Made by a program: the position numbers and the translations under genes
Part shown: piece after piece, positions 20,157 through 64,000 of the stretch
Position numbering within the stretch: the first letter of the stretch is position 1
Layout: every line of letters begins with the position of its first letter
Notes under the pieces: generated by a model
Told to the model about the DNA's origin: nothing
Database searches by the model: none
The model's input: only the letters and a program-made list of their open reading frames with translations
DNA from: Acidimicrobiia bacterium
Lineage (GTDB): Bacteria; Actinomycetota; Acidimicrobiia; Acidimicrobiales; Bin134
Length of the DNA: 64,000 nt
Direction: 5' to 3'
Assembly (NCBI GenBank): GCA_009843865.1
Contig: VYCQ01000023.1
Coordinates: 144,092 to 208,091, forward strand

Positions 20157-21746
20157 ATGAAATATCTGGCAGCCAAATATCCTCGACGACAAATGCTGAT
20201 CGGATTACTACTCGCATTGGTCATGAGTGCTGTGGTGCCTGTTCATGCTTTTGCGCAACAAACTCAGCAGGATGTTCAAATTCTGCACCTCCAAATCTTG
20301 TACAGCGATGGGTTGATTTATCAGCAAGAAAAATTGCTCAACGCCTATCGTTGCAGGTTTAATATCGACACCATCGTGGTACCGGGAGGATGTCAAGACG
20401 GTGTGTCAGCAGTCCCGCTACCGGTACCACTGCCCTTTACAGGCATCCCTACGACAGAAGAAAAGATCTTGCGAGACAGCACCGTGTTGTCGCAGGAAAC
20501 CTTATTAAATGTCTACCGGTGCATGTTCAGCATTGATACTCAGATAGTGCCTCAAGGTTGTCCTGAGCGCAATCAAACAGCTGCAACGCCAATAACAAGT
20601 GGTGGCTCTTCTTCTAGCAGCGCTGGTAAGGTCGTTACGCCTTTGACCGACACCTCAAAGTGCAGCTTTGCCGACTATGCCACCAATGCGATAGATGCGG
20701 TTTGGCAAGTTCGTGCAGGTCAGAATCTAGGCACAGCTTTTCATCTGGGTCAATACGCTGAGCATTCTTGGTGGCTAACAGCTGAGCATGTGATACGTGA
20801 TGCCGGTTCAATACGACTTACTCACGGAGGACAAAGTCTTATAGCCCGCATCGTGCTAGCCGACCGAGGCGAGGACATTGCGGTGCTGTCCACATCTCCA
20901 TCAACGGCGGCTGAGCTTCAGCTAGGCGGGCTGAGCACTACAAGACCAGGTAGCGACATCTTCGCAGTCGGCTTCCCACTTTATGTGGCATCCACGCCAT
21001 CAATTACACGCGGTATCGTCTCAAGGGTACTTGAAGACCCAATTCTCGGCAGAGTTTTGCAAACAGACACCGCAGTGAACCCGGGAAATAGCGGTGGTCC
21101 CATGCTGAACTCATGTGGATATGTGTTAGGCATGGTGGTAAGCAAGGCAGCGGCAGTCGGCAGTGAGGGTATCAACTACTCGGTTATTGAGCCAAAGTTG
21201 TTAGATGCTCTCACATTTGCTCAAGCCGACCCCAATCAGTCGCCTGCTCCACCTTCTCCCCCTAAACCTGCGATAGGCGTAGATGCCCCTGGCCCGGGAG
21301 AATGGCAGCAAAGTAGCTATAGCAACGGTGATGACTACCTATGGCATGTGTACTACTTGGACGAAAATGGCAACGGGGCTGTCGTCTATGAGTTTCCTTG
21401 CGGTAAGGACTACTACAACCTGGCAATTTGGACCACACGCTGGGATGCCTTAGCACTTGACAATCTTGGATATATCCGTTTTTGGGAAGAATCAAGCCAG
21501 TCTACTGTCAGCTTTCTGCGAGCCAATGTGTCGCAACACACTAGCAATGGCGCAACCCGTTTTGCTCTACGCCGTGAGTTCAATACAGGGGCAGTTCAAG
21601 ATTCAGATCGCTCTTACCGCTTCTACTTCGAACTGTTGGACAGCTTCCAAAATCGTGGGGTGCTGTTGAGCTTTATTTCCTCACCAGCTCACACACAAAT
21701 GGTTGAGGAAGCCCTAACCGTTACACGTAGGGAAGTGGCCTGCTAA
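20157..21746 (+). CDS. Secreted trypsin-like (S1C) serine protease with two N-terminal Cys-containing modules and an unknown C-terminal domain
   Basis: Signal peptide ending AFA; TAEHV, DIAVL and GNSGGP catalytic triad; duplicated QExLLNxYRCxFxID..VPxGC module. Confidence 0.85.
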   Translation: MKYLAAKYPRRQMLIGLLLALVMSAVVPVHAFAQQTQQDVQILHLQILYSDGLIYQQEKLLNAYRCRFNIDTIVVPGGCQDGVSAVPLPVPLPFTGIPTTEEKILRDSTVLSQETLLNVYRCMFSIDTQIVPQGCPERNQTAATPITSGGSSSSSAGKVVTPLTDTSKCSFADYATNAIDAVWQVRAGQNLGTAFHLGQYAEHSWWLTAEHVIRDAGSIRLTHGGQSLIARIVLADRGEDIAVLSTSPSTAAELQLGGLSTTRPGSDIFAVGFPLYVASTPSITRGIVSRVLEDPILGRVLQTDTAVNPGNSGGPMLNSCGYVLGMVVSKAAAVGSEGINYSVIEPKLLDALTFAQADPNQSPAPPSPPKPAIGVDAPGPGEWQQSSYSNGDDYLWHVYYLDENGNGAVVYEFPCGKDYYNLAIWTTRWDALALDNLGYIRFWEESSQSTVSFLRANVSQHTSNGATRFALRREFNTGAVQDSDRSYRFYFELLDSFQNRGVLLSFISSPAHTQMVEEALTVTRREVAC

Positions 21747-39349: not shown

Positions 39350-40234
39350 ATGAAGTTAACCAACAGCGTCGTTATCAGGTCTTTGGCACTGCTATTTGCC
39401 GTAGCTTTAGTTTGTATGGCTTGCAGCTCAGATAGCTCAACCGCGTCTCACACAGGGACACCTGTAACTAGCACGCCCAATCAAGCTCCAAGCGATATTA
39501 GCAGCGATCCAGCAACAACTTCACCCACCTCTGAAACCATGCAAGCTCAGACCCCTGTTCCTACTACTAGGGTTGAGCAGCCAGTACCTTTCGATCAGAG
39601 TCAAACCCCAGAGCCAGTTTCTGATTCTGCTGAAACACCAACACCGCAATCCGGGCAAAACTCTGCGCAGAACCCCTCAGCAACTCAAGCCCCAGAACCG
39701 CAAACAGAACCCCAGACCACCCCACCAACCGAGCAACAAGCTACGCCTCAACCCACCCCTACCAGGCCATTAGCTACACCATCGTCAAGCGCAACTCCCA
39801 CATCAAAACCAACACCAATCCCCGAATCGGATCTGCCATCCATCAACGTTATCAACGTTACCAGCGGCGCAACTGTAAACCTCGCAAGCTTTGCGCCAGG
39901 CCAAAAGCCCATTGTGTTGTGGTTTTGGGCACCCCATTGATCTACTTGCCGCCGGGAAGCATCCGGCCTCGAGCAGTTGGCTCGACAGAACAGCGACAAG
40001 TTCACCCTCATCGGCTTGGGGGCACAAGACAGCCTCTCGCACGCTGAGAGTTTCGTAAGCTCCACTGGTACTACCTTTACCATGCTTTGGGACTCATCAG
40101 GAGCCTCCTGGCGAGAGCTAAGTGTTTTTGGTCAACCCAGTTTGATCGTCATGGATCGCTATGGTCGCGAAACCGACCGCCGTGGTGGTGTTTCACCAAG
40201 TTGGATTCTGCACGCGATTGAAAACATTAATTAA
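39350..40234 (+). CDS. Putative selenoprotein: lipoprotein TlpA/DsbE-like thioredoxin with UxxC active site (UGA at 39938-39940)
   Basis: ORFs 39350-39940 and 39977-40234 share one frame; read-through gives WFWAPH-U-STCRREA...GQP, a complete thioredoxin fold; signal peptide with MAC lipobox and P/T/Q-rich linker. Confidence 0.8.
39951..39967 (+). promoter_or_regulatory. Candidate bacterial SECIS hairpin
   Basis: GCCGG-GAAGCAT-CCGGC starts 10 nt after the in-frame UGA. Confidence 0.6.
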
Positions 40235-61229: not shown

Positions 61230-62501
61230 TCAGGTCAATAGCAACTGCTTAGAACTTTCGGGCTGCCGGTTGACAATCTCTGTTTTTTGTAATGAGTCTG
61301 GCTCCTTGCAAAACATTCGGGGCTTGGGTTGCCAAGGTTGAAGGTCGGCGTAGGGTTTGGGTGGTGGTCTGAGTTCATATGTGCCGTCTTTTCGCCGATG
61401 CACAACCCAGCCGTCATCATGGATGTTGTGGTGGCAACTCGGGCACACTAACACGAGGTTGTCAATATCAGTGCTTCCGCCTTTGTGCCATTCGATAATG
61501 TGGTGAGATTCGCACCATACTGCTGATCGCTCGCAACCAATGCAGTGTTGATCACGAGCGATGAGCACGGCTCGTTGCGCCTCGGTTGCTGATCGGTGTT
61601 TACGCCCCACCCGAAGCTCTTGGTTTTTAGTGTCAAATACACAAGGCAAGATGTCAGCATCGCAAGCCAACCGCACCGCTTCGCCCATCGGCAGCAGATC
61701 ACCATCAGACAAGCGCACATTAGCAAGCTTGCTGCTAGCTGCATCCCACTCGGCGGTCAACACTAGCGTGACACCCTGAGATCTGCGGTTGCTGGTATTG
61801 GTGCAGACCAGGCTTTCCAAAGCATCAGCAAGCCGCTGATCGAAAGTTGTTTGCTCACCTGTCTTGTCATCGTTGCGTAGTCGGCGTTCCTCAGCAGCCA
61901 GTGCTGCCTCAATCTTGTTTCCAGCTTCTGGATCAAACCGCCCATTCAAGACATACATGCCATCATCTGAAGCCTTAAAGAAGCTCAGCGAGCGACGCTC
62001 GCGCTTTTTAGCAAAAAGAGATTTGCCAGCATCACCAGACTGTTCGTATTGATGATCGCGCAATGTCCGAGAAAAGGTGCCGAAGTCCTGGCATCGGGCC
62101 GCTTCTACTAGCAGCGTCTCATCAACCGACCCTTGAGAAGCGGCCTTGGCGATTTGAGTGGCATGAGCTGTAGGAATCTCACCGGCACCCAATGCATCGA
62201 GTGTCTCAGGAACCTGAGAGAATTGAGCAGCGGTCTCCACCTCACGGCGAGCTTGCTGTTTAGAGGTTTGAAGCTCATCTAAAACCACCCGACGAGCCAT
62301 ACCTTCGCCGCTCCGATTAGCGTATTCAGCCAACGCGGCTGTCTTCATTGCTGCTAGTCGTGCCTCAGCCCGCTTAATCAACCCTAACCGCCCTCGCAGT
62401 TCAGACAGTGACAGAGATGCAACATTCGCTACCTCCGGCCATATTGGCCCAGATGGCTGTCTATCAGCCTGTTTATCCTGCTCACATAACCTAAACTCCA
62501 T
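61230..62501 (-). CDS. DUF222 (13E12-repeat type) HNH endonuclease
   Basis: QRLADAL, RLACDA, RDQHCIGC...CESHHI.EW..GG.TDIDNLVLVC..CH..IH; TATACT 7 nt before ATG. Confidence 0.88.
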   Translation of the reverse strand: MEFRLCEQDKQADRQPSGPIWPEVANVASLSLSELRGRLGLIKRAEARLAAMKTAALAEYANRSGEGMARRVVLDELQTSKQQARREVETAAQFSQVPETLDALGAGEIPTAHATQIAKAASQGSVDETLLVEAARCQDFGTFSRTLRDHQYEQSGDAGKSLFAKKRERRSLSFFKASDDGMYVLNGRFDPEAGNKIEAALAAEERRLRNDDKTGEQTTFDQRLADALESLVCTNTSNRRSQGVTLVLTAEWDAASSKLANVRLSDGDLLPMGEAVRLACDADILPCVFDTKNQELRVGRKHRSATEAQRAVLIARDQHCIGCERSAVWCESHHIIEWHKGGSTDIDNLVLVCPSCHHNIHDDGWVVHRRKDGTYELRPPPKPYADLQPWQPKPRMFCKEPDSLQKTEIVNRQPESSKQLLLT

Positions 62502-62914: not shown

Positions 62915-63616
62915 CTATCCTTCCCAACTTTGTAACCAGCCAAGCACTGATCTGAGTTGACCGCCTAAATCAAAAATGGCTTCAATCTGGATGCAGTCGT
63001 TATCACTATCAGTTTTGATATGCAACTGTTTGGCATCAAGGTAAGCCCCTAGGAACTTGTCCGCAGGTGGTAATGGAAATAGGGTTTGGATATTGGATTG
63101 ATTCCAAATAGGGATCTGCTTATCTTTTTGATACCAAAAAGATTCTGAATTTTGATTATCGAATTGGTAGGAAATAGGAAATGACTCGCTGCAAGACAAA
63201 GGCGCAGATCTCAAATCGATAAAGACTTCTGTCGTTCCGGGGCTAGTAGTATGAGCATGAGCAGCAGTTAGAGCTTTTTGAATAGTAAACGTTATGAGAT
63301 TATACCAACTAAATTGTGGTGTGGCCTGCCAACGGCAAACAGCATACGCACCACTATTCGGGCGGTTTATTGTACAGTTTGCAGGCTTAGCAGCTGTTGA
63401 CGTAAGTGATGCAGGGTCTGAGTTCACGCAGCCTCCGGGTACAAGCTGAATATCAATATTAAACATGCAGCGATACACATTTAATAGTTTCTCTTGTTCA
63501 ACAATTAATCGATCGCGAGCTGCTATGTCTGCTGCTGGGTCGTGCGCAACAACAGGCATCGCAAGCAGCAGCACCAAAACTATTGCCACAGTTAAAAAAG
63601 TTGTTAGGCGGTTCAT
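62915..63616 (-). CDS. Secreted hypothetical protein with one N-terminal QExLLNxYRCxFxID..VPGGC module
   Basis: Signal peptide ending VVA; module shared with the protease at 20157. Confidence 0.75.
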   Translation of the reverse strand: MNRLTTFLTVAIVLVLLLAMPVVAHDPAADIAARDRLIVEQEKLLNVYRCMFNIDIQLVPGGCVNSDPASLTSTAAKPANCTINRPNSGAYAVCRWQATPQFSWYNLITFTIQKALTAAHAHTTSPGTTEVFIDLRSAPLSCSESFPISYQFDNQNSESFWYQKDKQIPIWNQSNIQTLFPLPPADKFLGAYLDAKQLHIKTDSDNDCIQIEAIFDLGGQLRSVLGWLQSWEG

Positions 63617-63650: not shown

Positions 63651-64000
63651 TTACAACTTCAGCAGTCCTAATTTAAAAAAGAAAGCCGTATCAGACTCTA
63701 AACATTTATCCCGTATATCGAACACCCAAGAAGGATGCATAGGTCGAGCATTGGGGCCTGACTCACCTCCAGCTATAACCCAATCTATAGCATGAAGATC
63801 AAGAGAAGGTAAACCTCCTAATAAAGGCTCAGCAGATACAAAGCGAACGGCTGCTGGCACCTCTCTCAAATGATCAATACGAAAACAATAGCGATCTGTT
63901 TCCACACTCACGCCTATCCAAATGTTGTCAGGCCAAGAAAGTCGTGATGCAAGTTTAGTAAGTCGCTGTGAACGCTTGGTAAGAACTTGATATGTATGAC
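63651..64000 (-). pseudogene. DUF5131 (phage Gp37/Gp68-like) protein, 5' part outside window, C-terminus apparently truncated
   Basis: YQVLTKR, NIWIGVSVE, RFVSAEPLLG, IDWVIAGGESG..ARPM; ends FFFKLGLLKL* rather than the usual FFFKQWGG tail. Confidence 0.7.

Follow-up and report, generated by a model that had tools for sequence, protein, structure and literature searches.

In the stretch of acidimicrobial DNA analyzed here (64,000 nucleotides of contig C11 of a genome assembly of 1.79 Mb in 43 contigs; hereafter the window), two genes encode exported proteins that carry a short module with two cysteines. One encodes a serine protease with two units of the module behind its signal peptide, and the other, on the opposite strand, encodes a 233-amino-acid protein with a single unit (Table 1). 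The paired units are predicted to form a small domain, which recurs in front of varied exported proteins of one family of sponge symbionts and which may serve to retain them at the cell surface.

Module-bearing genes of the window and its genome

Positions 20304–20561 of the forward strand translate exactly to the two peptides quoted in the preliminary description of this DNA, in which a module of 30 amino acids was proposed. The repeats are real, but the conserved unit is longer. An alignment of ten full units gave a unit of 38 amino acids that reaches about 8 amino acids upstream of the 30-residue core, with the consensus xxxxDIAxRDxLIxxQExLLNxYRCxFxIDTxxVPGGC. Gln16, Glu17, Leu19, Leu20, Tyr23, Arg24, Cys25, Asp30, Val34, Gly37, and Cys38 were invariant in all ten units.

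Table 1. Coordinates of the features discussed, in the window unless another contig is named
Feature	Position	Strand	Basis
Gene of the exported serine protease with tandem domain, 529 amino acids	20157..21746	+	Open reading frame; Trypsin_2 match
Predicted Sec signal peptide, residues 1–33 (...VPVHAFA/QQ), without lipobox Cys	20157..20255	+	Read from sequence
Unit 1, residues 42–79, helix then C-x12-C loop	20280..20393	+	Profile E 6e-21; AlphaFold2 helix, model residues 2–27
Pro-rich linker between units, 56-residue register class, ordered in model	20394..20447	+	Predicted local distance difference test (pLDDT) 92–95
Unit 2, residues 98–135	20448..20561	+	Profile E 5.5e-21; AlphaFold2 helix, model residues 59–82
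Ser/Thr/Gly/Pro-rich spacer, domain to protease domain	20562..20729	+	Sequence
Trypsin_2 protease domain with TAEHV, DIAVL, and GNSGGP motifs	20730..21134	+	Pfam; motifs read in translation
UxxC oxidoreductase lipoprotein, 294 amino acids (lipobox LVCMAC)	39350-40234	+	Open reading frame; Redoxin/AhpC-TSA-type domain (TlpA/redoxin-type)
Gene of the 233-amino-acid exported protein, one unit and orphan passenger	62915..63616	-	Open reading frame; no Pfam match
Single unit, residues 26–63, directly after signal peptide (...VVA/HD)	63428..63541	-	Six-frame motif scan; profile E 4.2e-23
Gene of a 1083-amino-acid exported protein, contig C22 of the same genome	L001:625-3873	+	Open reading frame

The passenger of the first gene matched Trypsin_2 (PF13365) at residues 192–326 with an E value of 1.1e-23 (85 bits against a cut-off of 27.6). 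We take its three motifs, in the order of Table 1, to be those of the His, Asp, and Ser residues of the catalytic triad. An HtrA/DegP identity was considered and rejected: the best HtrA or Do models of NCBIfam reached at most 82 bits against cut-offs of at least 416, and Pfam detected no PDZ domain in the protein. Therefore, the passenger is predicted to be an S1-type protease and not a canonical HtrA.

Three copies in two proteins had been counted previously. The third copy does lie in an unrelated secreted protein; the passengers of the two proteins showed no BLASTP similarity (E 0.47), and both reading frames begin with a hydrophobic segment. However, a loose motif scan followed by a search with a hidden Markov model identified 12 units in seven exported open reading frames of the genome, three of the units being in the window. 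Within the genome, the units scored E values of 1e-15 to 1e-22, while the best unrelated reading frame had an E value of 3.9. Two units are present in four of the seven proteins, of which one is cut by a contig end; two carry a single unit; and one, a VCPO-like protein, combines a full unit with a second, degenerate unit that lacks both cysteines. Besides the Trypsin_2 protease, the passengers include an Rpf-like double transglycosylase (PF06737) and a VCPO_2nd/DUF6851 enzyme; the other four belong to no family, and those of the three small module proteins have no mutual similarity (BLASTP E 0.046 to 0.59).

In the 1083-amino-acid protein, the pair of units lies at the extreme C-terminus. The rest of this protein contains repeated Ig-like or Calx-like segments and WSDGxxxWVAD repeats, broken by a run of N in the assembly. 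Its two units are identical at 110 of 114 nucleotides, which points to a recent duplication or conversion; the two units of the window protease share 56 of 114. A general homogenization of the two units within genes was rejected because the median identity of units is nearly equal within proteins (66%) and between proteins (63%).

Predicted fold and distribution of the tandem domain

Eighty tandem pairs were aligned, with the window pair first. All four cysteines and 18 other columns were invariant in the 80 pairs. The AlphaFold2 model computed from this alignment had a mean pLDDT of 95.9 and a predicted template modeling score of 0.85, with a long helix in each unit (Table 1) and with the cysteine loops and the linker ordered. 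The register between consecutive units was 56 residues in 106 and 52 residues in 45 of 155 unit pairs (151 of 155 together), and the conserved linkers of the two register classes differ. Because of the high-confidence two-helix model and the nearly fixed register, the two units are predicted to form one domain of about 94 amino acids, and the pair, not the single unit, would be the usual structural unit. In the proposed arrangement, each 38-residue unit would consist of a long helix and, after it, a loop of 13 residues that the two invariant cysteines close; the two helices would pack together, and the linker of fixed length would run along them. A prediction of a two-copy complex of the single unit scored 0.28 (the mark being 0.42) and has no bearing either way.

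The module had been described as closed by a disulfide. No tool shows the bond itself, but a disulfide in each unit is plausible: we infer it because the cysteine pair is invariant, because both cysteines are missing together from the single degenerate unit (that of the VCPO-like protein), and because the proteins are exported. A VKOR enzyme was not matched in this genome; other oxidases were not searched.

Neither the 86-residue module region (P0001) nor the whole 233-amino-acid protein matched any family of Pfam or NCBIfam at E ≤ 1; in the protease, matches were confined to the protease domain. A profile search against the sequences of the PDB gave no match at E ≤ 1. The best Foldseek match of the domain model in the PDB had an E value of 6.4. 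A wide structural search against representatives with VIA-align reached a best Z score of 6.8, with generic helical bundles and coiled coils under the noise level for helical models, and a look-up of the 94-residue domain in the ESM Atlas gave no usable match. Several of the VIA-align matches were three-helix bundles and a two-segment coiled coil of adenylyl cyclase; this pattern might tentatively be taken to fit two parallel helices with the linker in place of the middle helix. In the literature searched, on Poriferisocius (where the papers concern corals) and on other sponge-symbiont Acidimicrobiia, supplements not covered, no description of the module was found, and a term search of PMC11706023 gave no occurrence. 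The view that the module is undescribed is thus upheld within these searches.

Sampled genomes were searched with the 38-position profile. The module was present in all 40 genomes of the window's own family of Acidimicrobiales, which is represented by a single genus in the collection, with 3–59 units per genome (882 in all, median 22.5); a first draw of the family had given 24 of 24. It was not found in 16 genomes of other families of the order, in a sample of 197 genomes covering 82 such families (E ≤ 0.01), or in 400 further genomes from the phylum. When prokaryotes were scanned by pattern, with one genome for each species, 399 stretches were confirmed. The best 80 of these represent 77 distinct loci, all labeled Acidimicrobiia, Acidimicrobiales, Candidatus Poriferisocius or "Sva0996 bin134". 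The related records carry the label Ca. Poriferisocius, placed by NCBI in the Acidimicrobiales. In the literature, bin134 is associated with a sponge metagenome. Viral contigs were scanned as well, with one confirmed stretch, for which no locus was returned. Among 1.84 billion representative proteins, there were 403 matches at E ≤ 1e-3, 366 at E ≤ 1e-10, and 203 at E ≤ 1e-30, far beyond the two proteins from which the module was first noted. Within the genomes searched, the domain is therefore confined to, and expanded in, one actinobacterial family of sponge symbionts.

The genome of the window (98% complete) is smaller than those of the 39 other species of the genus in the collection (2.2–4.1 Mb, rounded), and its 12 units compare with the family median given above. 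In another genome (G022:C1:3199937-3207445, part of which is L014), eight consecutive minus-strand genes begin with the module; they lie about 1.05 kb apart, with frames of 349–470 amino acids, and form a tandem array of module-bearing paralogues.

Position, passengers, and possible role

Architecture was analyzed in the 150 best representatives by summed score, a set that is biased to two-unit proteins. Two units were present in 145 of them, three in four, and four in one. The first unit began within 160 amino acids of the start in 141 proteins, so the earlier term "N-terminal tag" describes most cases; in eight proteins, however, the pair lies within 60 amino acids of the C-terminus, as in the 1083-amino-acid protein, and in one protein it is internal. 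An uncharged hydrophobic 12-mer precedes the module in 115 of the 141 N-located proteins, and several of the remainder begin only within a unit, their gene calls being evidently truncated. The median distance from the hydrophobic signal region to the start of the unit is 9 amino acids. In the 30 residues after the last unit, Pro, Thr, Ser, Gly, Ala, Glu, Asp, Gln, and Asn make up 74%, compared with 60% in the background (130 N-located proteins). Thus, the domain would typically stand at the mature N-terminus, and rarely at the extreme C-terminus, of Sec-exported proteins, with a flexible spacer of low complexity between it and the passenger. The preliminary description had also allowed for a sorting signal, which does not agree with a stably folded 94-residue domain, as modeled, behind an ordinary signal peptide.

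The passengers are diverse. A Pfam scan of the same 150 proteins (E ≤ 1e-5) found a family after the domain in 61 and none in 89, while the module region itself had no Pfam match in any of them. The most frequent was RCC1_2 (26 proteins), followed by CAP (7), Calx-beta and fn3 (4 each), and Trypsin_2, LRR, cadherin or cadherin-like, PD40, and DUF2510 domains (3 each). SBP_bac_5, Gmad2, and OpuAC were found twice each, one of the OpuAC matches being partial and inside a protease fusion, and Peptidase_M60, FG-GAP, pentapeptide, Ank, and CarboxypepD_reg once each. About 20 unrelated passenger types stand behind the domain, which bears out the proposal of a portable module on diverse exported proteins.

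Two families of solute-binding proteins are informative because the same passenger occurs with and without the domain. In the window's genome, the OpuAC-type binding protein is a lipoprotein (…LIAAAC) whose gene follows those of an ABC ATPase and a 682-amino-acid permease in one operon. In two relatives, G024 and G041, OpuAC paralogues have the tandem domain ahead of the binding domain; their identity to P0012, a representative with the module, is 78% and 69%. The G024 paralogue is complete, with an AxA-type signal peptide followed by the tandem domain, and is 55% identical to the lipoprotein of the window's genome over 318 amino acids of the binding domain; the G041 gene call begins inside the first unit. 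The SBP_bac_5 representative P0030 likewise has an AxA-type signal peptide and the tandem domain. Its counterparts in 33 of the 40 family genomes align only from about residue 135 on, with 61–68% identity. In G047, the one genome examined, these counterparts are two lipoproteins (…LVAAAC and an acidic stalk) that share an operon with two permeases. Both of these adjacent lipoproteins (L098:1917-5813) have stalks of about 90 residues, acidic and made of Pro, Ala, Asp, and Glu, between the lipobox and the binding domain, and the length of the stalks suggests a thick envelope layer to be spanned.

Judged from these sequences, the domain replaces the lipobox and stalk of an operon-encoded paralogue in both families. 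The binding proteins of monoderm bacteria must be tethered, and they are normally lipid-anchored or fused to a permease. A domain in place of a lipobox and stalk is therefore most simply another tether, and these exchanges are the best evidence for such a role at the cell surface. Trypsin-fold proteases, Rpf-like wall hydrolases, and solute-binding proteins act at the producer's own envelope; therefore, the protease and the Rpf-like hydrolase of this genome fit a tether as well. Strict lineage restriction together with expansion is typical of wall-binding modules for a lineage-specific polymer, such as SLH, CWB2, and WxL. Other anchors are rare on the module proteins: among 111 N-terminal signal regions, four contained a lipobox-like motif, and among the 150 proteins, one had an LPXTG-like motif and one a transmembrane-like segment after the module. 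We infer a mechanism in which the domain would retain its passenger non-covalently on the producing cell by binding an envelope component peculiar to the lineage, either a wall polymer or a protein of the surface, and would thus be equivalent in function to lipid anchors, sortase anchors, or wall-binding repeats of the SLH and CWB2 types. The chances that the domain holds its passengers at the bacterium's own surface seem to us about even.

Several observations weigh against retention. The rarity of other anchors is equally expected of freely secreted proteins, and since Lgt and sortase are present in the genome, a further anchor is not evidently needed. In the DNA available, the module-bearing OpuAC paralogues of G024 and G041 are not beside a permease, both being near contig ends, and might have no part in transport; for P0030, which does not stem from any of the 40 species genomes, the comparison is one of protein sequence. 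The commonest passengers are eukaryote-like repeat domains, which would fit a host-directed role too. No gene recurs beside the module genes in 91 loci, and neither Foldseek nor VIA-align found similarity to any known wall-binding fold. Neither a receptor nor a binding activity is predicted from these data, and the case for retention stays near the midpoint between acceptance and rejection.

The eukaryote-like passengers (LRR, cadherin, fn3, Ank, RCC1-like, and the enhancin-type peptidase M60), the label of the lineage as a sponge-associated clade, and the absence of the domain beyond this lineage in the genomes searched would all suit an adhesin that binds some constituent of the sponge (for example, a mesohyl glycan, collagen or a cell-surface molecule) and so fixes the proteins, or the bacterium, to the host. 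Such an adhesin is improbable in our estimate, because housekeeping envelope proteins (solute-binding proteins, the trypsin-fold protease, and the Rpf-like muralytic enzyme) carry the domain too and because the exchange of lipobox for module argues for retention on the producer. A little less improbable, though still unlikely, is a module for docking or oligomerization, which would bind a dedicated scaffold or other copies of itself to build complexes or a surface coat. Its construction from duplicated segments, and its placement at one or the other terminus of dozens of proteins in each genome, recall the dockerins. Moreover, single-unit proteins exist, as in two of the seven in this genome, and 163 of the 366 strong matches have scores within the range of one unit; with two helices required for the fold, single units of different chains might pair. 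P0002 and P0003 are among a few proteins with hardly anything besides three or four units. The need for two helices is, however, satisfied within one chain by the exactly two units of most of the best representatives, neither a scaffold candidate nor a conserved neighboring gene was found in the 91 loci, and docking to a cell-bound scaffold would merge into the tether.

The small fold, very stable-looking, with its invariant cysteines and nearly always at a terminus, could also be a passive cap that aids folding after Sec export or shields the termini from host and microbial proteases. We regard this as very improbable. The invariant polar residues Arg9, Asp10, Gln16, Glu17, Asn21, Arg24, and Asp30 exceed the needs of a passive cap, the flexible spacer speaks against direct chaperoning of the passenger, and the replacement of lipid anchors would be left unexplained.

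A broader form of the tether, in which the domain, with a fold unrelated to known anchors, would be the shared handle for surface display throughout the lineage, is a tentative proposal that we consider less probable than retention as such. If it is true, up to about 30 proteins per cell would be docked onto a symbiont-specific envelope receptor, and the cargo would cover most of the eukaryote-like host-interaction proteins (RCC1-like, LRR, cadherin, fn3, Ank, and CAP). One domain–receptor pair would then organize the whole host-facing surface of a dominant clade of sponge symbionts. Sponge symbionts are uncultured, and the display of their numerous eukaryote-like proteins to the host is a question on which such a pair would bear. 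Irrespective of its role, the domain is easily recognized and identifies the exported or surface proteins of one dominant family of symbionts. It provides a handle for cataloguing exported proteins, including those without a known family, and a bait for a receptor, and it merits a family model in Pfam or NCBIfam.

Known systems and gene neighborhoods

The domain appears to be an undescribed family, with a fold to match in the model, for what would be the familiar role of a portable surface-retention module. The preliminary description likened it to an SLH-type anchor, and the comparison holds as an analogy, given the two exchanges of lipobox for module, but not as membership. SLH domains (PF00395) are tandem, mainly helical units of about 55 amino acids. 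Within a lineage, they are found at either end of numerous unrelated exported proteins, and their non-covalent hold on a secondary wall polymer resembles the role proposed here. However, no SLH profile matched at E ≤ 1, and the module has two units instead of three, with an invariant cysteine pair per unit that is absent in SLH. The SLH fold is a three-unit helical spindle. No SLH entry appeared among the fold matches, where the generic helical hits noted above do not exclude the fold. CWB2 of Clostridioides and WxL of Enterococcus and Lactobacillus are similarly lineage-restricted and terminal, with tens of paralogues per genome and varied passengers, but they share no sequence match with the module and differ in size and fold.

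Type I dockerins (PF00404) are small domains, each built from a segment in duplicate, that occur at the N- or C-terminus of dozens of different secreted proteins and are strongly expanded in certain lineages. They have duplicated Asp-rich calcium-binding loops, whereas the module consensus lacks the Asp-rich calcium-loop motif, has cysteines instead of calcium sites, and gave no Pfam match at E ≤ 1. No cohesin-like partner turned up among the neighbors in the 91 loci, although no search aimed at cohesin was made. The lipoprotein anchor (lipobox and Lgt) occupies the same place, the mature N-terminus ahead of a flexible stalk, and is exchanged with the module in the two binding-protein families, but the module is a folded protein domain and not a lipid modification. 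C-terminal sorting signals of the LPXTG/sortase or PEP-CTERM type are a short motif with a hydrophobic C-terminal tail; they were rejected as a match for a folded domain of 94 residues that is mostly N-terminal. If the tether is real, the domain would add a new structural class to the few surface-anchoring modules of Gram-positive bacteria.

Co-occurring genes had been proposed as a means of finding partners. The non-module open reading frames of the 91 loci were clustered, and no recurrent neighbor emerged. The largest cluster comprises 12 reading frames in 10 loci, has no Pfam match, and overlaps module genes on the opposite strand; to judge from its coordinates, it is probably a shadow frame antisense to them. 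The remaining clusters hold unrelated genes of housekeeping or mobile type (DNA ligase, SDR, HAD, DUF222-HNH, phosphatase, methylase, and helicase). Two to four module genes are present in 17 of the 91 loci. In the window, the neighbors of the protease gene are of the housekeeping type, with a H+-pyrophosphatase gene upstream and a formate–tetrahydrofolate ligase gene downstream.

The UxxC oxidoreductase, which had been mentioned as a conceivable partner, does exist as a gene, but it lies about 19 kb from the protease gene and nothing links it to the module. Its product has a stalk of about 130 residues rich in Pro, Thr, Ser, and Gln and a WAPH-U-STC motif with an in-frame TGA at about 39938, and it is a candidate exported selenocysteine thiol-disulfide oxidoreductase.

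The 233-amino-acid protein has no full-length homologue in the range of 128–408 amino acids among 5.8 billion clustered proteins, and its passenger had no homologue among proteins of that size beyond its own record; it appears to be a species-specific exported protein. Its gene is flanked by a DUF222-HNH endonuclease gene (61230-62501, minus strand) and a DUF5131 fragment (63651-63998, minus strand) that extends beyond the edge of the window. DUF222-HNH genes adjoin module genes in seven further loci.

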